Assembly (NCBI GenBank): GCA_023511585.1
Contig: JAIMBF010000003.1
Coordinates: forward strand, 6,537-70,536
Reading direction: 5' to 3'
Source: Terriglobia bacterium
GTDB taxonomy: Bacteria; Pseudomonadota; Alphaproteobacteria; Acetobacterales; Acetobacteraceae
Length of the DNA stretch: 64,000 bases
This document shows positions 42,977 through 58,189 of this stretch, piece by piece. The position numbers and the translations under genes are program-made. Position 1 is the first letter of the stretch, and every line of letters begins with the position of its first letter. The notes beneath the pieces were generated by a model. That model was not told where the DNA came from and ran no database searches. It saw only the letters and a program-made list of their open reading frames with translations.

Positions 42977-43009
42977 ACCATCCCCCGCACCGCCGAAGCC
43001 GGCCAAGGC
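42701..43009. repeat. Direct repeat copy B (displaced 3' end of an ada/ogt gene)
   Basis: 309 bp collinear with 26169-26477, with 13 substitutions and no indels. Confidence 0.9.
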
Positions 43010-43179: not shown

Positions 43180-46092
43180 ATGCCGAACGCGATGATGGCA
43201 ACGTCACTCAACCCCGGTTCCATCGTTCGCTGCCGTAATCGAGAATGGGTCCTGTTGCCGGGGCAGACGGATGATATCTGGGCCCTCCGTCCCCTAACCG
43301 GCACCGAAGACGAGGTGGTGCAGGTCCACAGAGCCCTCGCCGATCTGGTGAGCAACGACCTTCCGTCCGAGCAAATCGCGCCCGCATCGTTTCCGCTGCC
43401 GACGGTCGCGGATGTCTCGGACGCCGCCAGTGCGCATCTTCTTTGGCAGGCAGCGCGCCTGACGCTGCGCGAAGGGGCGACACCGTTCCGCTCTCTAGGG
43501 CGGATCTCCATTCGTCCGCGAGTCTATCAGTTCGTGCCGCTGCTGATGGCCCTTCGGCTGAATCCGGTGCGTCTGTTCATCGCCGACGATGTGGGCGTGG
43601 GCAAAACCATCGAAGCGCTTTTGATCGCGCGCGAAATGCTCGATCGCGGTGAGATCAGCCGCTTCTGCGTGCTGTGTCCACCCTATTTATGCGAGCAGTG
43701 GGCAAAGGAGCTCGCCGAGAAGTTCAATCTGGATCCGGTGGTCATACGCTCCGGAACGGTTGGCCAACTCGAGCGCCAAGTCCCGGTCGGGAGAGACAGC
43801 ATCTACGCATACTTCCCAGTACAGGTGGCGAGCATTGACTTCGTCAAGACCGAACGCAACCGTCACCAATTCCTTCACTTCTGCCCCGAGCTCGTCATTG
43901 TGGATGAGGTGCACGGCGCCGCCGAGGCGCCGGGTTCGGCCCAGCAGGAACGGCACGCGCTTCTCCGCAAGGTGGCCGCCAAGGATCCCGCGCGCCACCT
44001 GATCCTTCTCACCGCCACGCCGCACTCCGGTATCGAGGGCACCTTTCGCTCGCTGCTCGGGTTGCTGCGGCCGGAGTTCGCCGCGTGGAATGTTGCCGAT
44101 CTCTCCGAAGAGCAGCGCGATGAGCTCGCCCGCCATTTCGTCCAGCGCACGCGGAAGGATATCGAGCGCGGATGGGAAGCCGCGCATTGTTTCCCCGAGC
44201 GGGAGCCGGTGGATGAGACCTACGCGCTCTCGCACTCCTACCGGAAACTTTTCGAGCAAACTTACGACTTTTGCTCCGAAATTGTCCGCACGGGAGAGCG
44301 CTTGGAACAGCGCAAACGACGCGTGCGTTACTGGGGCGCGCTCGCCCTTATGCGCTGCGTGATGTCAAGTCCGGCGGCCGCGGTGGCGGCACTCGGGAAA
44401 CGGGCCGGCGGGGTCTTGGCGGACGAGGACGAGTCCGAGTTTCGCCCTTTCGTGTTTGAATCGGCGGACGATCGCACCGATGACGAATCACCGGTGCCGC
44501 CTCTTGAAGCGGCGGCGGCAACATTCGCCGACACCGAACGCCGTCAGCTCGCTGAACTCAAGCGGCTGGCGGAGACGCTTCACGGTCCGGAGCACGACAC
44601 GAAGCTCGCCCGGGCCAGCGCGGTTGTGCAGCAACTTCTTGCGGAGGGTTTCTACCCCATTCTTTGGTGCCGCTATGTGGCCACGGCCGAATACCTGGCC
44701 AATCATCTCCGAGAGACTCTCTCGCAGGAAACGCAGGTGGTCTGCGTGACGGGTCGGCTGGCCGATGACGCGCGCCAGGCCAAGATCGAAGCGATCAATG
44801 CCGAGCGTCCGCGGGTGTTGGTGGCGACCGATTGCCTCTCCGAAGGGGTGAACCTGCAGGAAAAATTCACGGCGGTCGTCCACTACGACCTGCCTTGGAA
44901 CCCGAACCGCCTGGAGCAGCGGGAAGGGCGCGTGGATCGCTTCGGGCAGCAAGCCAAGCGGGTCAAGACAGTGCGGTTTTTCGGGCGCGACAACCCCGTG
45001 GATGGCGCCGTGATCGAGGTGCTCCTGGACAAGGCACGCGAAGTCCACCGGACGCTGGGCACCTACCTGCCGGTGCCCGAAGAAGGCGAGAGCGTGACAC
45101 AGGCGGTGCTGGAGGCGCTGTTCCTCAAGGGGCGGCGCGGCGTGGCGCAACAGCTCTCGCTCGACCTCAATTTGCCGGAAGTAGAAAACCTGCACCAACG
45201 CTGGGAGCGCGATGCCGAGCGCGAGCGCACCAACCGCACCAAATTTGCCCAGCGGGCCTTGAAACCCGAAGAAGTCCAGCGCGAACTCGAAGCCACCGAC
45301 GCGGTGCTCGGCGATCCGGACGCCGTCCGCGAGTTCGTCTTGGCGGCGGCCCAACGCCTCGGCTTGCCCGTCAGCCCGGACCGTCGTCCCGGCGTGTTTC
45401 GCATCGCCGTGTCGGCCGAGATACGGAAAACGATGCCGGAGCCCGTCCGCCTCGCCCTACCCGCCATCAAGAACAGCCACTGGCTGGTGAGCTTCCAGTC
45501 CCCCACGCCGGAAGCGGCCGAGTACCTCGGCCGGAACCACCGGTTCGTCACGGCTCTTGCGCGTTTCCTTTTCGAAGAAGCGCTGACGCGCTCCAGCGGT
45601 GCCACCGCCTCGCGCTGCGGCGTGCTGCGCACGCGCGCGGTCGCGGAGCTGACCAAAATTCTCCTGCTGCGCGTGCGTTATCTAACCGAGCAGCCGGAGA
45701 CGAGACCGCTCCTTTCCGAAGAAGTGCTGGTGATGGGCTATCGCGGGGGCCGGGCAAGCGACATCGCATGGCTCGATGAAAACGAGGCGCTCCGGCTGCT
45801 CACCGAGGCGAGGCCGGATGCAAATATCCCGCTGGAGGAGAAGCGCGAGTTGATCCGACACGCGTTGGCGCAATTGGGTGACTGGGCCACCCCCGACGGC
45901 GTATGGGGGACGCAAAACGCGATCCAAAGACACATACGCGGCCGACAGGTTGAACGCGCCGAGGAGCTTACGGAGGCCCACAAGCGCATTCGGCGGAGTG
46001 TCGCGTTGCGCGTGCGGGAGCTCAAGGTGAAGCCGCAGTTGCCGCCTGATCTTCTGGGAATTCTCGTTCTGCAACCGATGCTGCGGGTGTAA
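43180..46092 (+). CDS. SNF2-family helicase (DISARM DrmD-like)
   Basis: 970 aa. Motif I DDVGVGKT, motif II DEVH, motif III LLTATPHSG, helicase-C VLVATDCLSEGVNLQ ... QREGRVDRFGQ. There are extra N-terminal (~130 aa) and C-terminal (~330 aa) regions. Confidence 0.85.
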   Translation: MPNAMMATSLNPGSIVRCRNREWVLLPGQTDDIWALRPLTGTEDEVVQVHRALADLVSNDLPSEQIAPASFPLPTVADVSDAASAHLLWQAARLTLREGATPFRSLGRISIRPRVYQFVPLLMALRLNPVRLFIADDVGVGKTIEALLIAREMLDRGEISRFCVLCPPYLCEQWAKELAEKFNLDPVVIRSGTVGQLERQVPVGRDSIYAYFPVQVASIDFVKTERNRHQFLHFCPELVIVDEVHGAAEAPGSAQQERHALLRKVAAKDPARHLILLTATPHSGIEGTFRSLLGLLRPEFAAWNVADLSEEQRDELARHFVQRTRKDIERGWEAAHCFPEREPVDETYALSHSYRKLFEQTYDFCSEIVRTGERLEQRKRRVRYWGALALMRCVMSSPAAAVAALGKRAGGVLADEDESEFRPFVFESADDRTDDESPVPPLEAAAATFADTERRQLAELKRLAETLHGPEHDTKLARASAVVQQLLAEGFYPILWCRYVATAEYLANHLRETLSQETQVVCVTGRLADDARQAKIEAINAERPRVLVATDCLSEGVNLQEKFTAVVHYDLPWNPNRLEQREGRVDRFGQQAKRVKTVRFFGRDNPVDGAVIEVLLDKAREVHRTLGTYLPVPEEGESVTQAVLEALFLKGRRGVAQQLSLDLNLPEVENLHQRWERDAERERTNRTKFAQRALKPEEVQRELEATDAVLGDPDAVREFVLAAAQRLGLPVSPDRRPGVFRIAVSAEIRKTMPEPVRLALPAIKNSHWLVSFQSPTPEAAEYLGRNHRFVTALARFLFEEALTRSSGATASRCGVLRTRAVAELTKILLLRVRYLTEQPETRPLLSEEVLVMGYRGGRASDIAWLDENEALRLLTEARPDANIPLEEKRELIRHALAQLGDWATPDGVWGTQNAIQRHIRGRQVERAEELTEAHKRIRRSVALRVRELKVKPQLPPDLLGILVLQPMLRV

Positions 46093-46094
46093 GC

Positions 46095-49000
46095 GTGTTT
46101 CCTGCGATCCGGATCGAAGGCGGCCTGCTCGGGCCGGACACTTTGGACCAGCTCTTGGCGGGGGAGCTCGAGGGCCAAAATCCGGGCGATTTCGGCCTCG
46201 CTGGCCGACGAACGCTCACCGATGAAATCGCCGGCGTGTTTGCCGACGCCCGCGCCCAATGGCAGGTGTTCCAGCATCGGCGGGAGCGTCTGCCCGACGC
46301 CGACCAAGCCACCTCGGTCACGCGCGATGCGTGGATGATCCCCTTCCTCAGTTTCCTGGATTACAAGCTTTTCTATAACACGCGGGCCTACGTGGTGGAT
46401 GGCGCGACATTCGCCATCTCCCACCGGGCAGGAGACGCCGAAGACGCCCCGCCGGTGCACATCGTCGGCGCCCAGCAAGAGCTGGGGCGCCTCGCGCCCA
46501 CCGGGCGGCCCAGGCTCGCCCCGCACTCCCTCGTCCAAGAATACCTCAACCGCAGCGAACAACTCTGGGGCATCGTCACCAACGGTCTGACCATCCGGCT
46601 GCTGCGGAACAGCACCTACATCCGCCGTCAAGCCTATGTCGAGTTCGACCTGCGGCAGATCCTCGAGGAGCAACTCTTTCCCGATTTCTCGGTCCTCTAC
46701 CGTTTGCTTCACCGCTCGCGCCTGCCGCGCACGGCAAACGATGCCGGCGACTGCCTTCTGGAGCGGTACCATCGGCACGCGCTTGAGCAAGGCGGGCGCG
46801 TGCGCGAGGGCCTTCGCGACGGTGTGGAAAAATGTCTCACGCAGCTTGCCGAAGGCTTTCTGGCACACCCCAAAAACCAGAAGCTCCGCGCGCAGGTCTT
46901 GCCGAGCGGCAGTGAACCCGAGCGTTTGCCGGCGGAGGAACTCTACCGACAGCTCCTGCACCTCGTTTACCGTTTCCTGTTCCTCTTGGTGTCCGAGGAT
47001 CGGGGCCTGGTGAGCCCCGACCCACTCTATCGCGAACACTATGGCGTGGCTCGGCTGCGGCAACTGCTCGACCGCCGCAGCGCCTACACCGACTACGACG
47101 ACCTCTGGTGCAGCCTGCAGGTGCTCTGGAAAGCGCTCTCGGACGAGAAGCTGGCTCGATGCTTGGGCGCCACCCCCCTCAACAGCGAGCTCTTCGCGCC
47201 GATCGCGTTCGATCACTGTACGATCGCGAACCGGGACCTGCTCGAGGCCTTCCGGCACCTGACGTATTATCAAGAAAGCCAATCCCAGCCGCCGCGGCGC
47301 GTCAACTACGCCGCTTTGGATGTCGAAGAGCTCGGTTCGGTCTACGAAAGCCTGCTCGATCATCACGCGCAGATTGAAGAACCACACGAGCCGAACAATG
47401 TGCCGCGGTTTAAGCTGGCTTCCGGCTCCGAGCGCAAATCCACGGGCTCGTACTACACGCCGCCCGAACTCGTGGCCGAACTCATCCGCTCGGCATTGGA
47501 ACCGGTTTTGGAGGAGCGGCTGAAGCACGCGAAGAGTGGCGAAGAAAAGGCGCAGGCGATCCTCTCCCTGCGTGTCCTCGATCCCGCTTGCGGTTCCGGC
47601 CACTTTCTGCTCGCCGCCGCGCGCCGTCTCGGCAAGGAGCTTGCCAAAATCCGCACCGGCGAAGCCGAACCCGCCCCCGAGCGGGTGCGCGAAGCGATCC
47701 GCGAAGTGGTTGCGCGGTGCATCTATGGCGTGGACAAAAACCCCCTTGCCGTCGAGCTTGCCAAGGTCGCGCTTTGGATCGAGACCGTTGAGCCCAGCAA
47801 GCCGCTCACCTTCCTTAACCATCACATTCAATGCGGCGACAGCCTGGTGGGCGTCCTCGATCCCAAGATTCTGGCAAAACCCATCCCGGATGAGGCTTAT
47901 AAACCCTTGACCGGCGACGATAAGGAGATTTGCAACGCTCTCAAGAAACGGAACCGCGACGCCGAGGACCGCGTCCGCCAAGGCGATCTGCTCGATCGCG
48001 AGGCAGCCTTACGCGACCGGGCGCTCGCGGTATCGCTCAACGATATGCCGGAAGAGAGCCTTGCCGACATCGCGGCCAAGCGCGAGCGCTGGCAGCGCCT
48101 GCACCAAGATCCCCACTACGTGCGCGAAAAGTACCGCGCGGATCTCTTTACGGCCGCCTTCTTTGCGCCCAAGACTCGCGCCACCGCGGAAAAAGTGCCG
48201 GTCACGGAAGACCTCCTCTCCCTCGCGGAAGAACAGACTTCGCGCCCGGGGGTGATCGCGTATGCCGCGGAATTGGCCGCCCAGCATCGTTTCTTCCACT
48301 GGCATCTCGCTTTTCCGGAAATCATGGAGAAGGGAGGATTCGATGTCGTGCTCGGCAACCCGCCATGGGAGCGGATAAAATTACAGGAACAGGAGTTTTT
48401 CGCTAGCCGCAGCCGCGATATCGCGCGGGCAGCCAATAAGGCAGCGCGTGACAAGTTGATCAAGGATCTTGGGCGTTCAGACGCACGCCCGGACGAAAAG
48501 GCACTGCTGCTGGCCTTCGAAGAGGCGAAGCGGGGGGCCGAAGCCGCCAGCCAGTTCATCCGCACCGGCGGCCGCTACCCGCTCACCGGCACCGGCGACG
48601 TCAACACCTATGCGGTGTTCGCCGAAACGTTCTTGAATCTCATCAATCCGCACGGCCGCGCGGGATTTATTGTCCCGACGGGAATTGCCACCGACAATTC
48701 CACCAAAGCATTTTTTGAGTTCGTCTCGACCGAGCGACGGCTTGCGAGTTTGTTCGATTTCGAAAATAGGAAGCCGTTATTCCAGGCGGTGGACAGCCGC
48801 ATGAAGTTCTGCCTGCTGACATTGGGCACCGATATCCCACAGGCCGACTTTGTTTTCTTTGCCACCAACGTCAAGCAACTCGCCGATAGCCGTCGGCGCT
48901 TCATGCTCTCTCCGGAAGACATCCTCCGCATCAACCCCAACACGCGCACCGCGCCGGTGTTTCGCTCCCAGGCCGATGCGGAGCTCACCAAAAAGATCAA

Positions 49001-50003
49001 CGCCCGCGTGCCGGTGCTGGTCGATGAAAGCAAGGGCAAGGACGGCAACCCCTGGGGCATCAGCTTTATGGCTATGTTTCATATGTCGAATGACAGCGGG
49101 CGGTTCCGCAGTGCGGCGCAACTCGAGGCGACGGGCGCACGGCGTGAAGGCGTGAACTGGGTCGAGCCGTCAGGACAGATTTGGGTGCCGCTCTACGAAG
49201 CGAAGATGATCCACCAGTTCGATCATCGCTGGGCGACCTACGAGACCGACGGAGAAACCTCCCGCGACGTGACCGAGCAGGAAAAGAAACGGGAGGATTT
49301 CGAGCCAAACCCCCGCTATTGGGTGCCGCAGCGGGAGGTGGAGGATCGGCTCCGCGCCAAAGGCTGGACGCGCGGCTGGCTGATGGGTTGGAGGGATATT
49401 ACCAACGCGACAAACGAGCGCACGGTGATCGCGGCGGCAGTGCCTAGGGTGGGGGTCAATCATAAAATCCCGTTGTTCATGACCGCGCACAAACCGTCAC
49501 TTGCTGCGGCTTTACCGGCCAACTTCAGCGCTCTGGTTTTGGACTACGTAGCACGGCAAAAAGTTGGAGGAACGTCGCTGACCTACTTTTATCTCAAGCA
49601 GTTCCCTGTCCTGCCGCCCTCCGCCTACGACCAAGAGGACCTAGATTTCATTATCCCTCGGGTGCTCGAACTTATTTATACCAGCCCGGCGATGAAGCCC
49701 TTCGCCAAGGATCTGGGCTACGACGGTCCGCCTTTCGCCTGGGATCCCGACCGCCGCGCTTGGCTCCGCGCCGAGCTCGATGCCTACTACGCGCGCCTCT
49801 ACGGCCTCACCCGCGACGAACTCCGCTATATCCTCGACCCATCGGACGTGAAGGGCTCCGATTATCCCTCGGAAACATTTCGCGTGCTGAAAGACAACGA
49901 AATCCGGCGCTATGGCGAATACCGCACCGCCCGCCTTACTCTCGCATGCTACGACGCCATGCAACAGGCCGAGCGCAGCAAGAGGCTACAGACAACCCCA
50001 TGA
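46095..50003 (+). CDS. Large gamma-class N6-adenine DNA methyltransferase (Eco57I/PglX/DrmMI-like)
   Basis: 1302 aa. GTG start 2 nt after the upstream stop. Has GSYYTPPELV, the SAM motif VLDPACGSGHFL (about 47580-47610) and catalytic NPPW (48357-48368). No nuclease motif was recognised. Confidence 0.85.
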   Translation: MFPAIRIEGGLLGPDTLDQLLAGELEGQNPGDFGLAGRRTLTDEIAGVFADARAQWQVFQHRRERLPDADQATSVTRDAWMIPFLSFLDYKLFYNTRAYVVDGATFAISHRAGDAEDAPPVHIVGAQQELGRLAPTGRPRLAPHSLVQEYLNRSEQLWGIVTNGLTIRLLRNSTYIRRQAYVEFDLRQILEEQLFPDFSVLYRLLHRSRLPRTANDAGDCLLERYHRHALEQGGRVREGLRDGVEKCLTQLAEGFLAHPKNQKLRAQVLPSGSEPERLPAEELYRQLLHLVYRFLFLLVSEDRGLVSPDPLYREHYGVARLRQLLDRRSAYTDYDDLWCSLQVLWKALSDEKLARCLGATPLNSELFAPIAFDHCTIANRDLLEAFRHLTYYQESQSQPPRRVNYAALDVEELGSVYESLLDHHAQIEEPHEPNNVPRFKLASGSERKSTGSYYTPPELVAELIRSALEPVLEERLKHAKSGEEKAQAILSLRVLDPACGSGHFLLAAARRLGKELAKIRTGEAEPAPERVREAIREVVARCIYGVDKNPLAVELAKVALWIETVEPSKPLTFLNHHIQCGDSLVGVLDPKILAKPIPDEAYKPLTGDDKEICNALKKRNRDAEDRVRQGDLLDREAALRDRALAVSLNDMPEESLADIAAKRERWQRLHQDPHYVREKYRADLFTAAFFAPKTRATAEKVPVTEDLLSLAEEQTSRPGVIAYAAELAAQHRFFHWHLAFPEIMEKGGFDVVLGNPPWERIKLQEQEFFASRSRDIARAANKAARDKLIKDLGRSDARPDEKALLLAFEEAKRGAEAASQFIRTGGRYPLTGTGDVNTYAVFAETFLNLINPHGRAGFIVPTGIATDNSTKAFFEFVSTERRLASLFDFENRKPLFQAVDSRMKFCLLTLGTDIPQADFVFFATNVKQLADSRRRFMLSPEDILRINPNTRTAPVFRSQADAELTKKINARVPVLVDESKGKDGNPWGISFMAMFHMSNDSGRFRSAAQLEATGARREGVNWVEPSGQIWVPLYEAKMIHQFDHRWATYETDGETSRDVTEQEKKREDFEPNPRYWVPQREVEDRLRAKGWTRGWLMGWRDITNATNERTVIAAAVPRVGVNHKIPLFMTAHKPSLAAALPANFSALVLDYVARQKVGGTSLTYFYLKQFPVLPPSAYDQEDLDFIIPRVLELIYTSPAMKPFAKDLGYDGPPFAWDPDRRAWLRAELDAYYARLYGLTRDELRYILDPSDVKGSDYPSETFRVLKDNEIRRYGEYRTARLTLACYDAMQQAERSKRLQTTP

Positions 50004-53000
50004 GCACGATTTTCGATCTGCGTGAGAGGGTTCTGAAAGATTACAGCGATTTCGTGCGCTCGTTCCTCTTGATCGCCGACGCGCGGGCACAGGAATTCGT
50101 CGATCGGGCACTGGCGGAGGAAAACCACTTATGGCCGGAGCCGCTGGTGCAACTCAGCCCCGCTTATGCGCCGGGCGCGACGGTGAACGAGCTTGCCCAA
50201 GACGGCCTGATCACGCAGCAGACCGCAAAAATCTTCCGTCACCCTGAGGGAAAGCCGTTTCGCCTGTATCGCCACCAGGAGGACGCTATCCGCAAAGCCC
50301 TTGCCGGGGAGAGCTTCGTAGTCACCTCGGGCACCGGCTCGGGCAAGAGTCTCTGCTATTTCCTCCCGATCATCGACAGCCTCATGCGGATGCCCGACAC
50401 CGGCGCGCGCACCTTTGCCCTGGTGGTCTATCCCATGAATGCGTTGGTCAACTCGCAGCATCAGGCCCTGACCGCGCTCCAACAGCGCTACGAGCAACAT
50501 TTCGGCGAGTCTTTTCCGGTGCGCTTCGCCAAGTATACGGGCGAGACGACCGATGCGGAACGGGAGATGATGCGGAACCAACCGCCGCAGGTGCTCCTCA
50601 CGAACTATGTCATGGCCGAGCTGCTCCTTGTGCGACCCGAGGATCGGCGCTTCCTCGATCGCGTCGATGACGGGCTGCGGTTTCTTGTCTTCGATGAGTT
50701 GCACACCTATCGGGGGCGCCAAGGAGCAGACGTGGCGATGCTGGTGCGTCGGATTAAAGAGCGCTGCGCCGCCGACGATCTCGTGCATATCGGCACCAGT
50801 GCCACCATGGTCGCGCAGCCGGGGGCAAGCGCCCTCGAACGGCGGCGGGTTGTGGCCGATTTCGCCACGCGTTTCTTCGGGCACGGCTTCACCCCCGAGC
50901 AAGTGATCGAAGAAACGCTCGCGCCCTTTACCGAAGGGGAATATCCGTCCCCTGAAGAGTTGAAAGCGGCGCTCTCGGCTCCGTTACCCTCCAAGGATCC
51001 GGCTGCATTCCGCCGCCATCCGCTGGTGCGCTGGATGGAGCGCGAACTGGGTTGGGAAGATGCCGAGGGCGGTCTCAAGAGACGTGTCCCGCGATCGCTT
51101 TCCGAAGTCGCGGGGAGACTGTCGGAACTCACGGGGGTTGCTCCCGCGCATTGTTTAGAAAGACTGCGCGAGACGCTCGTTCAGGGAAGCGAACTCCCGA
51201 AAGGGGGCGGCCATTACGTTCCGGCGTTCAAGCTCCATCAGTTCATCAGCCAAGGCCGGACCCTCTATGCCACCCTAGAGGATGCCGAGCAACGCGAGTT
51301 CTCGCTGGATGGCCAGCTTCAGGCGGGCGAGGGGAAGCTGTTCTTTCCGGTCAAATTCTGTCGGCAGTGCGGCCAGGATTACTATCACGTGGTACGGAGC
51401 GCTCGCCGCTATGACCCCCACCCCGTTGGTGTCGAGCTCGAGGAAGACGAAGAGAGCGAAGCAGGATATCTCATGCTGGCGCCGCGGGAGCAGGACTGGT
51501 CCGACGAGCAGCTCCCGGCAGAGTGGTACGGCAAGAACGGCAGGCTCGCATCCACCTGGAAGGACCGGGTACCCCGGCCTGTCTGGGTCTGCCCGGATGG
51601 GTCGGAGGCCACCGGGGCCGAGTGCCATGCGCGCAAGATGTGGTGGCAGCCGAAGCCGTTTACGCTATGCCTCGCCTGCGGGGAGTACTACACAGGGCGC
51701 GAACGTGAATTCGTCAAGCTCGCCTCGCTCTCCAGCGAAGGCCGTTCGAGCGCGACGACAATTCTGGCAAGTTCGCTCTTGCGCCACGCGGGTGCGACCC
51801 AGGTGGTGCGCAATAAGCTTTTGACCTTCACGGATAACCGTCAGGACGCTTCGCTCCAGGCAGGGCACTTCAACGATTTCGTGCAAGTGATGCTCCTGCG
51901 GGCGGCTCTCTATGCGTCACTCGAAAAAGCCAAGGAACTGACCTTCGATGCTATCGCCGCAAAGGTTGTAGAAGCCTCGGGCCTCAGGATTGCCGACATC
52001 GCCAAGAACGCCGAACTGGATCCGAAGTCGCCCGCTGCGCGGGAAGTCTGGAAACTCTTCACCGATCTTACCGAATACCGGTTGTACGAAGACCTGCGCC
52101 GTGGCTGGCGCGTGGTCCATCCCAACCTGGAGCAGGTGGGGCTTTTGCGGGTGGAGTATGTCGGCCTGGAAGAGCTGAGCAGGAGCCCAGATTTAGCAGC
52201 GATACATCCGTGGTTCGCGAAGAGCCGGCCCGAGGAATGCGCGGGCTTTCTCCGTGCCGTCTTGGATCAATTCCGGCGGAAACTGGCGATCCGGGCCCAG
52301 GTTCTGGAGGAGGAGTTTCAGCAGCGGCTCGCTCGTCGGTCGGCGCACCATCTCAATGAGTTCTGGGGCTTGGACCCAGCCTCAAACGAACTCCGCCAGG
52401 CTACGCGTTTCGTGCTCCCGGGCCCGTCGGGCCAGCCGCTGAAGGGCTTTAGCCTCGCGGAGCGGAGTTTGATCGGCCGGTTTCTCACAGCCAAGCTTAG
52501 CATCTTCGGGACCGCTTATCGCGAGGTTCTTGGCGGCCTTCTTGATCTCTTGGTGCGGCAAGGATTCCTCTTTCGCACCGAATCCGGTGACGGCCATAAG
52601 TCCTACCAGCTCGACGCAGCCTGCCTGCGCTGGTGTCTCGGCGATGGATCGGCGCCGCCCCCGGATCCGCTGTATTCCCGCCGCGCATCTCAAGCCGGCG
52701 ATGCGCAACTTCGCCGGGGCGTCAATCCGTTCTTCCAAAGCTTTTACAAGGTGCAACCCGCGAGCCTCGCTGCTCTGGAAGCCCGCGAGCACACCGCCCA
52801 GGTGGTCCAGCCCGGTGAGCGCGAACGCCGCGAACGCCGGTTTCGTTGGGGGGAGCAGGAGAGCGGGAAATCGGCCGAATTGGGGCGGCCGCTGCCGTAT
52901 CTCGTATGCTCGCCCACGATGGAATTGGGTGTGGACATCGCGGACCTGGACCTCGTGCACCTGCGCAATGTCCCGCCCACGCCGGCCAACTACGCCCAGC

Positions 53001-55075
53001 GCAGCGGCCGTGCCGGCCGTCAAGGCAAGCCCGGCTTGATCCTGGCTTACTGCGGCGCCCTCAACAGCCACGACCAGTACTTCTTTTCACGCCGTGCGGA
53101 CATGGTAGCCGGGAGCGTGCGTGCGCCCCGGCTCGATCTCGCCAATGAATCCTTACTTCGCGCCCATATTCACGCAGTCTGGCTGGCTCATATCCATCTC
53201 AGACTGGGCAATTCCGTTGAGGAAGTGATCGATACCGATAACGACAAGCTTCCGCTTCGGGAGGAGGTGGTCGCGAAAATCCAGCTCAGCGAAGCAGGTC
53301 GCGTGGAAATTCTGGAGCGGGTTCGCGAGAAGATCTTGGCCGCAGACCAAGCGAGGCTCGCTTCGAGCGGGTGGTTCTCCGAACTTTGGATCGAACAGGT
53401 TCTCGCGGAGGCACCACGCGCGTTCGACCGGGCCTTCGAGCGATGGCGGGAGCTTTACCGGGCAGCAAAGCGCCAGCTGAACGAAGCGCGCGGCGAAGAG
53501 GATCGGGCAAAGACTCATGAAGAACAGCAGAGGGCCAAAACACGGCAGGAGGAAGCCCGCCGGCAGTTGAACTTGCTTCTTCAAGTGGGCGTGACGCGGG
53601 AGGAGAGCGATTTCTACCCTTATCGCTATCTTGCCAGCGAAGGTTTCCTGCCCGGCTATAATTTTCCGGCGCTTCCCGTGCGCGCCTGGCTGCCGCGGGG
53701 TGAGGGAGAGTTCATCGCCCGGCCGCGCTTTCTGGCTATTCGCGAGTTTGCTCCGCAGAATTTCCTTTATCACGAAGGGGCGCAGTGGGAATCGTTTGCC
53801 TTCCAGGCGCCACCGGGGGGGCTGGACGAACGCAAGAGCCAAAAGCGGCTATGCAACACCTGCGGGGCGTTTTCGGAGCCGAAGCTCGATCTCTGCCCGG
53901 TTTGCGAAACGCGGTTTGATGGTGGGAACAGCGCACTCATTCTTGGGCTCGATATGCCGAACGTGCGGATGCAGCGGCGCGGCCGGATTACCGCCGACGA
54001 AGAGGAACGTCGACGACGGGGGTACAGGCTTGAGATCTGCTTCCAGTATGCATCCGAGGCCGCAGGCTACCGCATCCAGGAAGCCGATGTGGTGGTGAAC
54101 GACACGCCGGCCTTGCGCCTGATCTACGCGCCGGCCGCGACGGTTTTGTGCGTCAATCACGGCTGGCGGAGCGCAAATGCACCGGGATTCCTCGTGGATT
54201 TCGAGAGCGGAGAGGTTTTATCCTCGGAGGAAAGTGACAAGAGCCGAGAGAGGCGCCCGCGACGCCTAGAGCGCGTGAAGCTCTTCGTCCAGTCCACTCA
54301 GAACCTTCTGCGCCTTCGGGTGATTGACGCGGCGTGGGAGGGTACGCCCGATCGCGAGAAAAGCCTCTTATATGCGCTCAAGCGTGGCCTTGAGGAGGCT
54401 TTCCAGCTCGAAGAATCAGAGCTCGCGGCGGAGTGGATCGGCGAGGGCGAGCACCGGGCTATTCTTCTCTACGAGGCGGCCGAAGGTGGGGCCGGCGTGC
54501 TTCAGAGACTCGTCCAAGAACCCGACGCGTTGGCCCAAGCCGCCCGGTCGGCCCTCGATGTCTGTCATTTCGACGCGAAGGGCGACGACCGCAAGCCGGA
54601 CTGCCGCGCCGCGTGTTACGAGTGCCTCCTAAGCTTCGGGAACCAGCGAGAAGCTCTGTTTCTCAACCGCTACACGATTCGGGAATTCCTCTTGGCTCTG
54701 GCCGCAAGCCGCACCGAGCCGCGAAACACACCCCGATCGCGGGAAGACCATCTGGCCCGGTTGCGTTCATTGACGGACTCCCGCTCAGCGCTGGCGCGCC
54801 GCTTCCTGGATGTGCTCGCCGAGGGCGGCTACCGGCTGCCCGATGAGGCGCAAAAGTCGATCGCCGAGCCAGACTGCACTTTCGATTTCTTCTTCACGCC
54901 GAATGTGTGTGTCTTCTGCGATGGGGCAGCGCAAGACGAGCGTGCTCACGTCGTCCGGGATCGCGGATTACGGGACGAACTGCTACGGCGCGGATACCGG
55001 GTGGTCGTCATCCGCGGCAATCAGGACCTGAGAGAGCAAGTCCGTCAGTATCCGGAGATTTTTGGGGGTCATTGA
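50000..55075 (+). CDS. Giant DExH helicase fused to a Cys-rich DUF1998-like module and a C-terminal Vsr/DUF559-like domain (DrmA+DrmB-like / DruE-like)
   Basis: 1691 aa from ATG 50000 (ATGA overlap with the methylase stop). Helicase motifs: GTGSGKS (about 50330), DELH (about 50693), SAT, QRSGRAGRQG (about 53000). Cysteine pairs: CRQCG / CLACG, then CNTCG..CPVC (about 53850-53915) and CRAACYEC (about 54600). The tail reads FDFFF..VFCDG..H..D..R..L..GYRVVVIR. Confidence 0.85.
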   Translation: MSTIFDLRERVLKDYSDFVRSFLLIADARAQEFVDRALAEENHLWPEPLVQLSPAYAPGATVNELAQDGLITQQTAKIFRHPEGKPFRLYRHQEDAIRKALAGESFVVTSGTGSGKSLCYFLPIIDSLMRMPDTGARTFALVVYPMNALVNSQHQALTALQQRYEQHFGESFPVRFAKYTGETTDAEREMMRNQPPQVLLTNYVMAELLLVRPEDRRFLDRVDDGLRFLVFDELHTYRGRQGADVAMLVRRIKERCAADDLVHIGTSATMVAQPGASALERRRVVADFATRFFGHGFTPEQVIEETLAPFTEGEYPSPEELKAALSAPLPSKDPAAFRRHPLVRWMERELGWEDAEGGLKRRVPRSLSEVAGRLSELTGVAPAHCLERLRETLVQGSELPKGGGHYVPAFKLHQFISQGRTLYATLEDAEQREFSLDGQLQAGEGKLFFPVKFCRQCGQDYYHVVRSARRYDPHPVGVELEEDEESEAGYLMLAPREQDWSDEQLPAEWYGKNGRLASTWKDRVPRPVWVCPDGSEATGAECHARKMWWQPKPFTLCLACGEYYTGREREFVKLASLSSEGRSSATTILASSLLRHAGATQVVRNKLLTFTDNRQDASLQAGHFNDFVQVMLLRAALYASLEKAKELTFDAIAAKVVEASGLRIADIAKNAELDPKSPAAREVWKLFTDLTEYRLYEDLRRGWRVVHPNLEQVGLLRVEYVGLEELSRSPDLAAIHPWFAKSRPEECAGFLRAVLDQFRRKLAIRAQVLEEEFQQRLARRSAHHLNEFWGLDPASNELRQATRFVLPGPSGQPLKGFSLAERSLIGRFLTAKLSIFGTAYREVLGGLLDLLVRQGFLFRTESGDGHKSYQLDAACLRWCLGDGSAPPPDPLYSRRASQAGDAQLRRGVNPFFQSFYKVQPASLAALEAREHTAQVVQPGERERRERRFRWGEQESGKSAELGRPLPYLVCSPTMELGVDIADLDLVHLRNVPPTPANYAQRSGRAGRQGKPGLILAYCGALNSHDQYFFSRRADMVAGSVRAPRLDLANESLLRAHIHAVWLAHIHLRLGNSVEEVIDTDNDKLPLREEVVAKIQLSEAGRVEILERVREKILAADQARLASSGWFSELWIEQVLAEAPRAFDRAFERWRELYRAAKRQLNEARGEEDRAKTHEEQQRAKTRQEEARRQLNLLLQVGVTREESDFYPYRYLASEGFLPGYNFPALPVRAWLPRGEGEFIARPRFLAIREFAPQNFLYHEGAQWESFAFQAPPGGLDERKSQKRLCNTCGAFSEPKLDLCPVCETRFDGGNSALILGLDMPNVRMQRRGRITADEEERRRRGYRLEICFQYASEAAGYRIQEADVVVNDTPALRLIYAPAATVLCVNHGWRSANAPGFLVDFESGEVLSSEESDKSRERRPRRLERVKLFVQSTQNLLRLRVIDAAWEGTPDREKSLLYALKRGLEEAFQLEESELAAEWIGEGEHRAILLYEAAEGGAGVLQRLVQEPDALAQAARSALDVCHFDAKGDDRKPDCRAACYECLLSFGNQREALFLNRYTIREFLLALAASRTEPRNTPRSREDHLARLRSLTDSRSALARRFLDVLAEGGYRLPDEAQKSIAEPDCTFDFFFTPNVCVFCDGAAQDERAHVVRDRGLRDELLRRGYRVVVIRGNQDLREQVRQYPEIFGGH

Positions 55076-55079
55076 ACCG

Positions 55080-55300
55080 CTCGTAGCATGCGCACGATGT
55101 CCGGCGCTGCTCGCGCTGATTTCTCACGCCTTGCGTTGTACCGGCCGATCTGCCACCCTATTCGTCGGACCTCAACCGATCGCGCAGGCCTTCCCCAAGA
55201 TCAAACACTGGATGCGCTCCGCCCGGAAGCGCACCGTCGAGGACGCCTGGCGCCACATCGGCAACCTCGTCCAGGGCGATGCCTCGCCCAACAGCAAGGC
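55080..55300 (+). mobile_element. Degraded C-terminal fragment of an IS630-family transposase gene
   Basis: ADLPPYSSDLN in one frame continues as PIAQAFPKIKHWMRSARKRTVEDAWRHIGNLV in another (frameshift near 55160). This matches the LPPYSPDLNPIEQAF.KLK region of IS630 transposases. There is no N-terminal part, and the fragment begins right after the helicase stop. Confidence 0.55.
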
Positions 55301-55500
55301 ATTGCCTGGTCTGATAGTCTTGAGTCTTTCGGGACGGCGTCGGACGGAGGCAGCCGCAGAGGTGAGAAGTTCCCTCCCTTCCCCCTCCATTGCGTCACCC
55401 TCATAACGCATCACGGCCAATCCATAGCCGGTTCTATCCGGGCGAAGCAGTATGTCGGCGAGAGCCCCGACGATGGCGGCGATCGCGGAAGCAACGGCCG

Positions 55501-56028
55501 TCAAAGGCGCGCCATCGCGCTCAGCTCATCCCAGCCCGAAGCAGCCGGAGGCTTGGCGAGAAGGCGAAACACTTCACTTAAAGGCATGTCGTGATGCTTG
55601 GATCGCGATTGGGGAACCGCTGTCGAATAAGGAGATGTCGGTTCCCGCGGGATTGCGTGTTCGGACCTTGGCGACGCTTCGCTCGTGAAGGCCGCGGGGT
55701 CTGGCCCCTTTTGCGGAGCCGGCGGGGTCTGCCATCCCCCCGTTGGCTCGCGGTCAAGTCGCGGTTCGACTGGGCTGCTTGCCTGAGGCTCAGTCGCAGA
55801 GGCGGAGAGTTCGGGGGCAACCGTCGGTTGGCGTTGCGCTGCAGGCGAAGCCACGCCGGTCTGTCCCGCTGTGGGCAAAGCCCGCGCGACAAGGGGGAAG
55901 ACTTCTGCCATTGACGTTTCGTCCTCAGAGGCTGTACCGACGCGCAGCCCGAAGTTCCGATAACCGAGTGAAGGAGCGCCGAACGAAACCGCCGCGCGCG
56001 TTACATCGTTGTCTTTGTCAGTGCTCAT
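55501..56028 (-). CDS. Pro/Ala-rich protein, possibly a short CcpAx/BcsH-like cellulose-complementing protein
   Basis: 175-aa ORF 26 nt downstream of the GH8 gene on the same strand. It is low-complexity and P/A/S-rich, with two copies of a (M/L)(A/S)EVF..L(V/L)A motif (SMAEVFPLVA, PLSEVFRLLA). CcpAx carries a similar MAEVF motif as I recall it. Confidence 0.4.
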   Translation of the reverse strand: MSTDKDNDVTRAAVSFGAPSLGYRNFGLRVGTASEDETSMAEVFPLVARALPTAGQTGVASPAAQRQPTVAPELSASATEPQASSPVEPRLDREPTGGWQTPPAPQKGPDPAAFTSEASPRSEHAIPREPTSPYSTAVPQSRSKHHDMPLSEVFRLLAKPPAASGWDELSAMARL

Positions 56029-56054: not shown

Positions 56055-57257
56055 TTAAAGACCCCTCCAAGAAAGATATGTTAGCACGATAAGCGCAGCC
56101 GAGTAATAATCTGTCTGCGCATTGATAGTCGGGAGCTCCGCAGGCGGCACCGAAGCGCTGGCCAGCTGTTCTCCGTTTGCGCGTAGGAAAAAGTCGGCCA
56201 CGGCTTGAATACCCGGAGAGGCCGGATAGGGCGCAATCTCGCCGGTGCAAAGGTCCACCCACGCCGGGTGAAAACCCGGTTTTTCATTCCAATAAGCGGT
56301 AAAGGACGCGCGCAGCCCGGGCACGGTGAGTCCTGCCTCGGTCAAATAAAGGAGAACGCGAATGGCATCGTAGGAAAACCGCGCCGGCCAGCGCGGTGCC
56401 GGGGCAAGGGTCCCGTCGCGCCGGGAAATGCTAAGCCAATCCGGCGGCAGCTGCCAGCGCCCGAAACGCCCTTCCTTGATCAGGGCATACCCGTCGGTCT
56501 GCACACGGCGGAGGCGTGCCGAGGAAATGAGGGTATTGATTTCGGCCAAAGCACGAAATGCATAATAGGAAGGATTGATGATGACCGCATCCGTCGTCTC
56601 GAAGCCGCGCAGACCCGGCAACAGCACCATGCGCTGCCCCACCTGCCGCGTCAGCAATCGATCGATGTCGTGCGCAATCGCACGAGCTGCTCGGATCAGT
56701 TCGGGGCGGTGCCAACGCCGCCCGGCACGGCTTAACGCGGCGGCAATCATGATATCGCCATCGGTCGCGTTGTTCGGGTCTGCGACGGGATCGGCGGCGG
56801 CGGGATCGTAGCGCCACATGTGTAGCGCGTTATCATCCCGCCGGAGATGCGAAGTCGTCCATTCATAGATGCGACGAAAAGTTTCCGCATCCCCGAAGGC
56901 TTCGGCAAAGAGCAGCCCATACCCCTGGCCTTCGCTGTGCGAGATACCGCCTTTTCCGGTATCGATCACACGGCCGTCAGGGGTAATGAATCGCTCGCGA
57001 AAAGCCACCCATTCCGTGTAACCGGTATCGGTGACCGTGGGCTCTTGCGGAGCAAGGTCCGCTTGCCCGCTTGCCAAGGTCTCATCCGAGTTGGACGGCG
57101 CCGGCGAGTCTTGTGAGTCATCAGCCGCTAATACCGTTTCCGCGCTACTCCATTTTTGAAAAAGTCGCGGACCGATAAACGGGGCCAACACGACAAGCCC
57201 TGCGAGCGTCAGCACGGGGCGGCGGCCGAAGAGAGGAAACGGGACAAAGCGGGGCAT
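56055..57257 (-). CDS. bcsZ: Glycoside hydrolase family 8 endo-1,4-beta-glucanase (BcsZ/CMCax-like)
   Basis: From MPRFVPFPLF (ATG 57257), with a signal-anchor segment. GH8 motifs SEGQGYGLLFA and NATDGDIMIAAAL. Confidence 0.85.
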   Translation of the reverse strand: MPRFVPFPLFGRRPVLTLAGLVVLAPFIGPRLFQKWSSAETVLAADDSQDSPAPSNSDETLASGQADLAPQEPTVTDTGYTEWVAFRERFITPDGRVIDTGKGGISHSEGQGYGLLFAEAFGDAETFRRIYEWTTSHLRRDDNALHMWRYDPAAADPVADPNNATDGDIMIAAALSRAGRRWHRPELIRAARAIAHDIDRLLTRQVGQRMVLLPGLRGFETTDAVIINPSYYAFRALAEINTLISSARLRRVQTDGYALIKEGRFGRWQLPPDWLSISRRDGTLAPAPRWPARFSYDAIRVLLYLTEAGLTVPGLRASFTAYWNEKPGFHPAWVDLCTGEIAPYPASPGIQAVADFFLRANGEQLASASVPPAELPTINAQTDYYSAALIVLTYLSWRGL

Positions 57258-57643
57258 AATCGGCCTCAAGCGTTTCTGGCAATTAGCCAAGGGGACAATC
57301 CGCCCGTTCACGATCCTCTCAAAAAACAAACAATGTCTTAATGCTGGAAACCGTTCTACAAATAAGATACGACTACGTGATGCAAAGGCACAGAAACGAC
57401 GCGCATATTTCGACCACGTAATAAAAAGATTGAAGCGCATTTTTCGCCTAATCGTTGAAACGAAAACCTTCAATAGTCTCTAACTCATCAATTCCGTTAG
57501 CAACCAAACTGCTCTCCTTATAGCATAAGACGAAAACAAATCACGTTTGAAGTCAACCGTTCTCTATCGCCGCGTCTCGCTATTTTTGTGATGCGTCAAG
57601 CTATTGTAAGGCAATATTAAAAATAATGAGAAAAACCGCAGAC

Positions 57644-57666
57644 GCAGCCGCCGTTGTCGCGGCTGC
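57644..57666 (-). terminator. Possible terminator hairpin after bcsD
   Basis: gcagccgc-cgttgtc-gcggctgc (8-bp GC stem). On the minus strand a T5 run follows after 8 nt. The spacing is not ideal. Confidence 0.3.
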
Positions 57667-57703
57667 CGGGTTGCGTTCGATATTTATTTGCACTGTAAAG
57701 CAT

Positions 57704-58189
57704 CTAGTGCTGCTTGTAAGCAAGCACAATCGTGTCGCCCGCCGATAATTGTTGTATCTTCGCAGCAAGATTCGGGTCACTTCCAGGCTGTGCGGCCATC
57801 CAGGCTGTATAAAGCCCCTCCAGCAGACAGGAAAGCCACGTGCCCGGCGGCGTCCCTGCGGAGCCGATGCGTGGCAGGCCGACATGGACGATGCGCAGCG
57901 TCCGCGCTTCTTCGTCGAGCAGTAACCGCACGCTGCCCCACCCGCTCTCGGCCAACGCATCGTTCATTTCCATTTCGAGCGCACCGAGCGTGCGCGCCGG
58001 CGGAAGCGGCAGAAGCGCAGCCATACCGCGACCGACACGCCGCAACAGATCGTCACGCGCTGTAACCCCAGCTACGGCATCGATCTGCTCAGCCAGCGGG
58101 CGCAAAAAAAGCCGCCAGTGAACCGATCTGGCGCCGGCGGAGTGATGGGCATAATGAGACTGTAGCGATTCCTTCAGTGCAGTATCCAT
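57704..58189 (-). CDS. bcsD: Cellulose synthase subunit D
   Basis: 161 aa with RDDLLRRVGRGMA ... LRIVHVGLPRIGSAGTPPGTWLSCLLEGLYTAWM. This closely parallels Komagataeibacter BcsD (LRIVHENLPQVGSAGEPSGTWLAPVLEGLYGRW) as I remember it. Confidence 0.85.
   Translation of the reverse strand: MDTALKESLQSHYAHHSAGARSVHWRLFLRPLAEQIDAVAGVTARDDLLRRVGRGMAALLPLPPARTLGALEMEMNDALAESGWGSVRLLLDEEARTLRIVHVGLPRIGSAGTPPGTWLSCLLEGLYTAWMAAQPGSDPNLAAKIQQLSAGDTIVLAYKQH

Follow-up and report, generated by a model that had tools for sequence, protein, structure and literature searches.

ARMADA systems are DISARM-related by definition, and the type I trio ArmA-ArmB-ArmC was described in 2025 (Bell et al. 2025, PMC12458937; bioRxiv 10.1101/2025.09.15.676423). 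Among the ARMADA types, published proof of anti-phage activity exists only for type II of E. coli (PMC12458937; 10.1101/2025.09.22.677730), in which defence is non-abortive and requires all genes, the Walker motifs and NPPW (PMC12458937). Type I genes usually run in the order C-A-B, with A-B-C reported for many archaea and cyanobacteria, and type I is recognised by having just one zinc insert in its OB-CON region (PMC12458937). ArmC has been likened in the literature to a DrmAB fusion (10.1101/2025.09.22.677730); only in the DISARM branch are OB-CON-DUF1998 and the helicase consistently separate, and elsewhere they are fused (PMC12458937). The related DruE of Druantia is a 3'-5' helicase, and one study found it to be an ATP-driven nuclease on forked DNA. 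Its PLD domains were dispensable for defence in one study, and in Druantia I and II the Vsr domains of DruE are inactivated (PMC12458937).

Here we describe a locus within a 64,000-nucleotide stretch of DNA (the window) that encodes a 1691-residue helicase. We conclude, with a probability of roughly 0.85, that this ORF is armC and encodes the predicted YprA-family helicase-nuclease of an ARMADA type I anti-phage system, the three genes of which form an operon at 43180-55075 on the plus strand. Descriptions of the system, of the protein family and of its domain architecture date from 2025, and the exact sequence is in that catalogue. As a discovery the locus carries little weight, being an ArmC of a known kind with one small oddity in a nuclease motif.

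The armA-armB-armC operon

The coordinates of the genes, domains and motifs are collected in Table 1. A mechanical ORF call placed the start of armC at a TTG at 49760. The N-termini of homologues, however, read MxTIFDL with F5 and L7 invariant, which supports the ATG at 50000 as the true start; this codon overlaps the armB stop (ATGA at 50000-50003). From there a stop-free ORF runs to 55075, stop codon included. The identical 1691-residue protein was called on contigs of the separate runs SRR15214118 and SRR15214123, and 81 homologues of 1680-1731 residues, from many phyla, match it end to end at 62-73% identity; all conservation counts below refer to the alignment of these 82 sequences, the window ArmC included. 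The continuous frame across 50.0-55.1 kb proposed in an initial annotation of this DNA is thus borne out, and every motif listed there was recovered in the ORF at the coordinates given. That the long ORF might be a sequencing error or two joined genes was considered and rejected in view of the independent assemblies and the full-length homologues.

Table 1. Positions of the operon genes and of the domains and motifs of ArmC
Feature	Residues	Nucleotides	Strand	Remarks
armA		43180-46092	+	970-aa SNF2/RapA/BrxHII-like helicase; Walker A GVGKT aa 139, DEVH aa 242
armB		46095-50003	+	1302-aa PglX/DrmMI-like N6-adenine DNA methyltransferase; SAM motif DPACGSG aa 496, NPPW aa 755
armC		50000-55075	+	1691-aa YprA-family helicase-nuclease (predicted); third gene of operon
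RecA1	~88-300	50261-50899	+	motifs I GTGSGKS, II DELH, III SAT
Helical insert after RecA1	~318-400	50951-51199	+	position of BrxA-like domain (PMC12458937)
Beta-rich zinc-binding module	~410-565	51227-51694	+	CxxC pairs C454/C457, C557/C560
RecA2, first part	~579-645	51734-51934	+	includes TFTDNRQDAS
Helical/winged insert inside RecA2	~646-880	51935-52639	+	position of MarR-like domain (PMC12458937)
RecA2, second part	~925-1040	52772-53119	+	motifs V, VI; Pfam Helicase_C
Three-long-helix region	~1050-1195	53147-53584	+	coiled-coil-like extension, RecA2 to OB module
OB-CON region	~1205-1450	53612-54349	+	one inserted zinc ribbon, C1285/C1288/C1299/C1302
MZB/DUF1998	1458-1543	54371-54628	+	Pfam PF09369; ligands C1522, C1535, C1539, C1542
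Vsr/DUF559-like PD-(D/E)xK nuclease domain (putative)	~1581-1691	54740-55072	+	family profiles, hhalign, AF2
GTGSGKS	111-117	50330-50350		
DELH	232-235	50693-50704		
GTSATM	265-270	50792-50809		
FCRQCGQDYY	453-462	51356-51385		
LCLACGEYY	556-564	51665-51691		
TFTDNRQDAS	609-618	51824-51853		
SPTMELGVDI	971-980	52910-52939		
QRSGRAGRQG	1000-1009	52997-53026		
FYPYRYLASEGFLPGYNFP	1205-1223	53612-53668		
CNTCG / CPVC	1285-1289 / 1299-1302	53852-53905		
CRAACYEC	1535-1542	54602-54625		

The three genes are tightly packed, with 2 nt between the armA stop and the armB start and a 4-nt overlap between armB and armC, and their ATPase and methyltransferase motifs are intact. ArmA carries the Pfam SNF2-rel_dom and Helicase_C domains and matches the PADLOC models DpdE (5e-177), DrmD (3e-84) and BrxHII (4e-55). 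ArmB matches Pfam Eco57I (1.9e-23), N6_Mtase and MmeI_Mtase, as well as PADLOC DrmMI (2.7e-84) and PglX (2.8e-16). The initial annotation mentioned neither of these upstream partners nor the C-terminal nuclease-like domain of ArmC.

Gene order recurs among relatives. An armA homologue lies upstream in three of their loci (L003, L004, L006), and the same A-B-...-C order was seen in Chloracidobacterium, Synechococcus and Limisphaera; The window operon itself, in this A-B-C order, belongs to a MAG labelled Methyloceanibacter, and relatives from Acidobacteriota and Verrucomicrobiota share the order. The armB-armC junction in relatives seems to gather toxin-antitoxin and other defence genes, and this cargo merits a systematic look.

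Downstream of armC lie a 168-aa ORF (55088-55594) and then a bcs operon on the opposite strand. The small ORF was rejected as a fourth gene of the system, having no family match, no codon-position GC periodicity and no conservation downstream of ArmC in relatives. No armD (RelE-like plus GajB-like) follows armC, and nothing follows the Vsr domain. Mobile-element signs were likewise missing: the window has no tRNA, and the larger ORFs that were scanned include no integrase.

The window ArmC is identical over 1691 of 1691 residues to MBX5452525.1 (P0121), which Table S1 of Bell et al. 2025 (PMC12458937) enters under "ARMADA Type I helicase", and its placement in the type I clade is taken from that table. 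Together with the SNF2 and methyltransferase partners and the architecture of ArmC, this identity is the basis for reading the operon as ARMADA type I. Type I is favoured over type II by the presence of one zinc insert between residues 1205 and 1458, the lack of armD and the lack of anything beyond the Vsr domain.

Helicase core, zinc sites and inserts of ArmC

Several comparisons identify ArmC as a YprA/MrfA-type SF2 helicase, most like DruE. Its best PADLOC matches are DruE3 (1.1e-93) and DruE1 (4.4e-85), followed at a distance by DrmA (2.5e-12, over about 70 residues). The best PDB matches by sequence are 9tu7, a 2108-aa helicase (5e-40), and MrfA, 6znp (1e-23). Foldseek searches with two multi-domain AF2 half-models returned MrfA at the top for both halves and reported only the MrfA/SF2 core; for the C-terminal half, the match to 6znp had an E-value of 9.6e-6 over 262 columns. 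These results bear out the likeness to MrfA/YprA and DruE that the initial annotation had suggested.

Pfam places DEAD at residues 91-271 (E 5e-23) and Helicase_C at 965-1009, and the motifs of both RecA domains are highly conserved. Invariant residues in RecA1 include G111-K116, D232, E233, H235 and S267-T269. RecA2 is split by large insertions, as had been proposed from the motif spacing. In its first part F610, T611, D612 and R614-A617 are invariant, and the AF2 model has a strand at 606-610 with helices on either side. In its second part S971-T973, Q1000, R1001 and G1003-G1009 are invariant, and AF2 pLDDT is low.

The insert after RecA1 is modelled mostly at pLDDT 78-95, as helices 318-326, 334-339 and 341-350, a beta hairpin at 352-361, and helices 367-378 and 382-397. 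Eight strands follow between 410 and 551 in the zinc-binding module, whose two CxxC pairs were also part of the initial proposal; ARMADA type I is marked by a beta-barrel zinc module at this point, where RecA2 starts, with two or more conserved CxxC motifs. The insert inside RecA2 is modelled as helices and then three strands at 857-880. Helices 88-104, 107-129 and 133-154 of the C-half model correspond to residues 1128-1194 and match, before the OB module, the HTH and coiled-coil finger described for ARMADA (PMC12458937). Pfam scans of the isolated inserts (residues 291-440, 441-600, 621-960 and 1061-1200) gave nothing or weak zinc-ribbon matches.

ArmC has three invariant four-cysteine sites. 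C454, C457, C557 and C560 are kept in all 82 sequences, as are C1285, C1288, C1299 and C1302; in the third site, C1535, C1539 and C1542 are kept in 82/82 and C1522 in 81/82, with H1523 also invariant. Between residues 1205 and 1458, a stretch that opens with the nearly invariant block FYPYRYLASEGFLPGYNFP, the only conserved cysteines are those of the C1285/C1288/C1299/C1302 ribbon. C1347 and C1384 are in neither the invariant columns nor those conserved to at least 90%, and most homologues have Arg at position 1384.

The in-cis DUF1998 module that had been proposed for 53.6-54.7 kb is present. Pfam PF09369 (MZB) matches at E 5.8e-11 with 43.4 bits against a cut-off of 24.2, covering profile positions 3-80 of 80. 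The cysteine cluster proposed for it stands in part: the CRAACYEC cysteines belong to the module, whereas CNTCG-x10-CPVC is a separate zinc ribbon in the OB region, about 230 residues upstream. The ligands were assigned from the Pfam MZB envelope and residue conservation; a single-sequence PDB search with residues 1440-1560, intended to map the ligands on MrfA, gave spurious matches only.

The C-terminal nuclease-like domain and alternative readings

[quoted passage not shown] When the homologous C-terminal domains were compared with Pfam, DUF559 was matched in 21/23 (best 7.9e-5) and MTES_1575 in 18/23, all below the gathering score; the sole Pfam match of the window C-terminus was MTES_1575, at E 0.2. 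A single-sequence PDB search with the C-terminal 131 residues gave chance-level matches only, and a profile of the homologue domains had 3r3p as its top PDB match at 0.13. Alignment to E. coli Vsr with hhalign (E 0.0058, probability 6%) pairs D1629 with D51 and D1654 with D97, and the AF2 topology is beta-beta-alpha-beta.

Within this domain the motif DGxVH has His in 81/81 homologues and Gln in the window ArmC (H1645Q), which is unique among the 82 sequences. The change is common to the 98%-identical proteins P0001 and P0122 and is thus not a sequencing error. It is accompanied by V1644A, P1648R, Q1650H, Y1632F, Y1673G and D1674N, and the window protein deviates at 6 of 34 conserved positions (17.6%) in the nuclease domain, compared with about 3-4% elsewhere (Fisher p 0.0025). 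Given the loss of the motif His, cleavage by the window ArmC may be weak or absent.

These observations raise the possibility that the system is decaying or repurposed, with a dead ArmC nuclease and either helicase-only action or a course towards loss. We regard this as unlikely, though it is the alternative that fares best. The domain-wide changes shared with P0001 and P0122 would fit it, as would the precedents of inactivated Vsr domains in Druantia I/II DruE and of DruE PLD domains that one study found dispensable. However, the operon has kept its three genes intact and in tight coupling, and every ATPase, methyltransferase and zinc motif is kept. The nuclease domain itself retains D1629, C1640-D1641-G1642, D1654 and R1658, and the new His five residues downstream of the lost one (Q1650H) could compensate. 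Gln, moreover, sometimes serves as a replacement in metal or water coordination. A related proposal, which we hold somewhat more doubtful still, is that the lineage of the window protein, P0001 and P0122 has an ARMADA type I operon that is intact except that its ArmC has lost the motif His and changed across the domain. If the system of this lineage still defends, ARMADA immunity could dispense with the ArmC nuclease or rely on a rewired active site (Q1650H). This would bear on the dispute over whether DruE-type helicases need their nuclease domains in defence, and the natural His-to-Gln change is a ready probe of the requirement for the Vsr-like domain.

It is improbable that the operon instead belongs to DISARM class 1, as a variant with DrmA and DrmB fused and DrmC lost, a reading close to that of the initial annotation. 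In its favour, ARMADA is DISARM-related by definition (PMC12458937), the upstream genes score against the PADLOC DrmD and DrmMI models, and DISARM_DrmD is the best NCBIfam match of the SNF2 gene. Yet that match reaches 320 bits against a cut-off of 610, DISARM_DrmAS reaches 15.6 against 950, and ArmC matches DruE models far better than DrmA (1e-93 compared with 2.5e-12). No PLD gene (DrmC) was found in the window or neighbourhood, nor a separate DUF1998-only (DrmB-type) gene in or beside the operon, and the exact protein falls in the ARMADA type I clade, which is nearer Druantia than DISARM (PMC12458937). The initial annotation had called ArmC a natural fusion of DrmA and DrmB. Both modules do reside in one protein, but the direction of the claim does not hold: in the account of Bell et al., fusion is the rule and DISARM is split, and "natural fusion" inverts the probable history.

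Slightly less probable again is that the protein is the DruE of a Druantia system. DruE3 and DruE1 head the PADLOC matches, 9tu7 heads those in the PDB, and the insert architecture is common to DruE (PMC12458937). The PADLOC matches are partial, however, consisting of 2-7 stretches of much longer DruE models, and the C-terminus is Vsr-like, as opposed to the tandem PLD of type III. armC is accompanied by genes for an SNF2 helicase and a methyltransferase, and no Druantia partners (DruH, DruA-D, DruM/F/G) were detected beside it. Finally, although MrfA is the top Foldseek match of both halves and JGI annotates homologues as "ATP-dependent helicase YprA", a housekeeping MrfA/YprA-type repair helicase with no link to defence can be set aside, since the protein has 1691 residues compared with 751 in the 6znp_A chain, has defence-clade inserts, lacks an MrfB exonuclease partner, shares its operon with genes for an SNF2 helicase and a methyltransferase, shows identity of 62-73% across unrelated phyla that indicates horizontal spread, and has relatives amid toxin-antitoxin, pAgo, GmrSD and CRISPR-type genes.

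Proposed mechanism and comparison with known systems

For the ARMADA type I reading, we propose a mechanism modelled on relatives rather than on type I data. ArmB, as an N6-adenine methyltransferase, would mark host DNA, with a self/non-self role like that in DISARM and BREX. ArmA, an SNF2/RapA-like translocase, and ArmC would act jointly on invading DNA. ArmC would load at a single-strand/duplex junction and translocate 3' to 5' as MrfA and DruE do, with the OB-CON-DUF1998 canopy shutting over the strand. DNA selection or inter-subunit contacts may be the task of the inserted helical, zinc-binding and winged-helix domains, whose role in DNA-end or modification sensing, as suggested in the initial annotation, is speculative. 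The Vsr-like domain would cut the DNA. The expected outcome is direct, non-abortive clearing of phage DNA; if the window ArmC cannot cleave, defence could proceed through helicase functions or other nucleases. Because ARMADA type I lacks a published experimental test, this compact operon in reversed order, with no cargo between its genes, is a possible minimal construct.

Comparison with known systems places the locus within this framework. MrfA/YprA of Bacillus subtilis (PDB 6ZNP, 6ZNQ, 6ZNS) shares the N-terminal strand, RecA1, RecA2 and the OB-CON-MZB canopy, but it is less than half as long, partners the MrfB exonuclease in DNA repair and lacks the BrxA-like, zinc-barrel, MarR-like, coiled-coil and Vsr domains, which are given only for the defence clades (PMC12458937). 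DISARM class 1 (DrmD, DrmMI, DrmA, DrmB, DrmC) likewise pairs an SNF2 helicase and an adenine methyltransferase with a helicase of the YprA family plus a DUF1998 module. Its helicase and OB-CON-DUF1998 are separate genes, however, its nuclease is the separate PLD protein DrmC, and the N-terminus of DrmA has EVE-like and jelly-roll domains (PMC12458937).

Druantia DruE, especially that of type III, offers the closest profiles and the closest solved structure by sequence, and it shares the inserts, the zinc motifs and the coupling of a 3'-5' helicase to a C-terminal nuclease domain. In contrast to ArmC, DruE has 1970-2108 residues, two OB zinc inserts and either tandem PLD (type III) or inactive Vsr domains (types I and II), and its partners are DruH or other Dru proteins and include no methyltransferase. 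ARMADA type II (ArmABCD; E. coli NCTC 12900, ATCC 8739 and EDL933) has homologues of ArmA, ArmB and ArmC in the same A-B-C order. It differs in having armD, a RelE-GajB fusion, and two OB zinc inserts, both absent from the window, and often in carrying, beyond the active Vsr, additional inactive EEP and Vsr domains, which are absent here.

With respect to ARMADA type I, the window operon departs from the usual pattern in running A-B-C rather than C-A-B and in having Gln in place of the nuclease-motif His. It has in common with type I the ArmA-ArmB-ArmC trio, inserts at the positions expected after RecA1 and within RecA2, the zinc modules, the long helices, a lone zinc insert in OB-CON-DUF1998, and a C-terminus that appears to consist of one Vsr-like domain.

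Operon identity and genomic setting

Neither ArmC nor its family is new; both have been described before. ARMADA is defined by ArmA (an SNF2/BrxHII-like helicase), ArmB (a PglX-like methyltransferase) and ArmC (a YprA-like helicase), and the nearest kin of ArmC helicases are those of Druantia (PMC12458937). In the window, armA, armB and armC form a tight three-gene operon. The window ArmC shares one 90% cluster with a sequence bearing the accessions MBX5452525.1 and MCL6490408.1, and pairwise comparison with MBX5452525.1 gave 1691/1691 identity. Table S1 of Bell et al. gives that entry (Methyloceanibacter sp., JADGHU010000003.1, IRZ25_01140) as "ARMADA Type I helicase" (PMC12458937), so the exact sequence is already catalogued. 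We assign the system to type I because ArmC has one OB-region zinc insert, no armD lies downstream of armC in the window, and no further domain follows the nuclease domain of ArmC. The initial annotation had named neither the system nor the partner genes nor the nuclease domain. The identical protein was deposited under two phylum-discordant MAG labels, Methyloceanibacter sp. and Acidobacteriia bacterium, which suggests either that one of the MAGs was mis-binned or that the gene was transferred very recently.

The earlier placement of ArmC among MrfA, DruE and DISARM relatives is sound: the best PADLOC matches were Druantia DruE models (1.1e-93 and 4.4e-85), and MrfA was the top Foldseek match for both half models. 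DISARM DrmA matched at only 2.5e-12 over ~70 residues, and ArmC passed no NCBIfam model. The closest solved structures by sequence were 9tu7 (a 2108-aa helicase, 5e-40), MrfA/YprA 6znp (1e-23) and 9wae (a 1970-aa helicase). The proposed DrmA–DrmB fusion is a phrase also found in the literature (10.1101/2025.09.22.677730), but the direction of evolution attached to it is probably reversed. In PADLOC, the armA product matched DpdE (5e-177), DrmD (3e-84) and BrxHII (4e-55), and the armB product matched DrmMI (2.7e-84) and PglX (2.8e-16); both proteins retain their catalytic motifs (GVGKT and DEVH in ArmA, DPACGSG and NPPW in ArmB).

The operon is flanked by ordinary chromosomal genes, with SDR and epimerase genes upstream and a GH8/BcsD/BcsC/BcsB cellulose-synthase operon downstream, both on the minus strand; the remaining window genes serve metabolism and transport. 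No tRNA or transposase was found in the window, and no integrase among its larger ORFs. Third-position GC is 0.73–0.77 in the three ARMADA genes (43180–55075) versus 0.62 in the flanking SDR (40076–42404) and GH8 (56055–57473) genes, a contrast compatible with horizontal acquisition. Three ORFs of 168–185 aa adjoin the operon (55088–55594, +; 55501–56028, −; 42449–43006, −); public assemblies annotate two of the three as genes. All are doubtful genes because they match no family and lack codon-position GC periodicity (about 0.66/0.61/0.62). The cellulose-synthase operon (56055–63971, −; BcsB, BcsC, BcsD and GH8 endoglucanase) lies directly after the defence genes, and in locus L001 the region past the end of the window continues with a gene for a PilZ-domain BcsA. 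BcsD is notable in a genome labelled Methyloceanibacter, and the bcs operon may also include a proline-rich 175-aa ORF that directly follows the GH8 gene and is co-directional with it.

Reading frame and architecture of ArmC

The armC frame runs without interruption on the plus strand. A mechanical ORF call places its start at TTG 49760, 5' of ATG 50000. The ATG at 50000 shares its ATGA with the armB stop codon, and the homologue N-terminus MxTIFDL, with F5 and L7 invariant in an alignment of 81 homologues, matches this start. An artefactual fusion of two genes through a sequencing error was rejected, as an identical 1691-aa protein was called on contigs of different sequencing runs and the 81 homologues (1680–1731 aa) align with ArmC end to end at 62–73% identity. 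A database search returned thousands of matches, and the 120 matches listed are 62–98% identical and nearly all full length.

Features of the operon and of ArmC (nt, window positions; aa, ArmC residues)
Feature	Position	Strand	Basis
armA, 970-aa SNF2-type helicase	nt 43180–46092	+	Pfam SNF2-rel_dom and Helicase_C
armB, 1302-aa Eco57I/MmeI-type N6-adenine methyltransferase	nt 46095–50003	+	Pfam, PADLOC
armC, 1691-aa helicase	nt 50000–55075	+	translation
ArmC GTGSGKS	nt 50330	+	motif search
ArmC DELH	nt 50693	+	motif search
ArmC two CxxC pairs	nt 51356 and 51665	+	motif search
ArmC motif V / motif VI	nt 52910 / 52997	+	motif search
ArmC CRAACYEC	nt 54602	+	motif search
ArmC RecA1	aa ~88–300		model and conservation
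ArmC DEAD	aa 91–271		Pfam
ArmC helical insert	aa ~318–400		model and conservation
ArmC beta-rich module, invariant C454/C457 and C557/C560	aa ~410–565		model and conservation
ArmC RecA2 start (TFTDNRQDAS)	from aa ~579		model and conservation
ArmC helical/winged insert interrupting RecA2	aa ~646–880		model and conservation
ArmC RecA2 resumed, motifs V and VI	aa ~925–1040		model and conservation
ArmC Helicase_C	aa 965–1009		Pfam
ArmC three long helices	aa 1128–1194		model and conservation
ArmC OB-CON region, one invariant zinc ribbon C1285/C1288/C1299/C1302	from aa 1205		model and conservation
ArmC MZB/DUF1998 domain, C1522/C1535/C1539/C1542	aa 1458–1543		Pfam and conservation

All 11 ArmC motifs quoted in the initial annotation were located where it put them, and its DUF1998 similarity was borne out by Pfam MZB/DUF1998 (E 5.8e-11, over the gathering score). 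The MZB domain has its own four cysteines, but the CNTCG/CPVC motifs, previously merged with it, constitute a separate site; ArmC has three distinct conserved 4-Cys sites in the 81-homologue alignment. AlphaFold2 models of the two halves (residues 1–1060, pLDDT 79.0; 1041–1691, pLDDT 79.2), together with conservation, agree with the published ARMADA layout, in which the BrxA-like and MarR-like names of the inserts rest on modest scores in the source paper itself (PMC12458937).

The C-terminal domain and its variant motif

Residues ~1581–1691 are modelled by AlphaFold2 as a helix-helix-strand-strand-helix-strand unit with the conserved pattern D1629-F ... F-C-D1641-G-x-V-H1645-D ... D1654 ... 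R1658 ... G-Y-R-V. When 23 homologous domains were scanned singly, Pfam DUF559 was matched in 21 (best 7.9e-5) and MTES_1575 in 18, all under gathering scores. The best PDB match of the domain profile was the Vsr-like homing endonuclease 3r3p (E 0.13). Alignment by hhalign to E. coli Vsr, whose sequence was checked against 1cw0, gave E 0.0058 with a probability of only 6%, pairing D1629 with Vsr D51, G1642 with G65, H1645 with the His69–71 cluster and D1654 with D97. These weak but consistent matches suggest a Vsr-type nuclease fold, an assignment also made by Bell et al. (PMC12458937).

The window ArmC reads FCDGAAQDERAH where 81/81 other homologues have FCDGxVHD(E/Q/D)PAQ; the motif changes are H1645Q, V1644A, P1648R and Q1650H, accompanied elsewhere in the domain by Y1632F, Y1673G and D1674N. 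Where the other homologues show at least 90% conservation, it deviates at 6 of 34 positions in the nuclease domain versus 28 of 743 elsewhere (Fisher p 0.0025). Because two 98%-identical relatives (P0001 and P0122) carry the same changes, we regard them as real and lineage-specific. The Vsr histidine cluster is catalytically important, and thus the loss of H1645 to Gln, along with the excess of substitutions at conserved positions, suggests that the predicted nuclease of this lineage may have reduced activity or none. However, the acidic residues of the motif are kept, and Q1650H supplies a new His five residues downstream of 1645. Among related helicases, the inactivated Vsr domains of Druantia I/II DruE provide a precedent (PMC12458937). 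For Druantia type III, the PLD domains were dispensable for defence in one study, whereas the nuclease was essential in another.

Proposed mechanism and comparison with related systems

ARMADA type II shields E. coli from many phages without cell killing, and this defence requires all genes, the helicase Walker motifs and the ArmB NPPW motif (PMC12458937); deletion of armC makes EHEC phage-sensitive (10.1101/2025.09.22.677730). DruE is an ssDNA-binding helicase with 3'-to-5' polarity, and in one study it showed ATP-dependent DNA degradation at forked substrates. In MrfA translocation, an OB-CON-MZB canopy closes over the strand (PMC12458937). By analogy with relatives outside type I, ArmB would mark self DNA, and unmarked or structurally abnormal invading DNA would be engaged by ArmA and ArmC. 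ArmC would unwind this DNA and its Vsr-like domain, if active, could cut it, while the zinc-bearing and winged-helix inserts may aid substrate selection or hold the complex together.

A Binatia MAG locus (L007 1134–14272) has RAMP-domain genes and an AAA_14/DUF4143 gene directly upstream of its ArmC homologue; the SNF2 gene downstream is a different one that carries a NOV_C domain. ArmA and ArmB are absent from the 9 kb upstream of this homologue before the contig end; the locus may have a different partner set or simply lie at an assembly edge.

Only the His-to-Gln nuclease variant and the armB–armC insertion hotspot are points worth passing on. The A-B-C gene order is kept in relatives, often with other genes between armB and armC: VapB and a PIN toxin in Synechococcus (L004 9131–9732), BrnT and a transposase in Chloracidobacterium (L003 8179–9816), a Piwi-domain protein and Hypoth_Ymh in Limisphaera (L006 6617–10001), and, in a Nitrospiraceae MAG (L008 4234–10004), a stretch of about 6 kb with small genes of HTH, M78 peptidase and DUF type. 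The junction looks like a recurrent insertion hotspot in reversed-order ARMADA type I operons. In contrast to these cargo-filled junctions, armB and armC of the window overlap (ATGA, 50000–50003).
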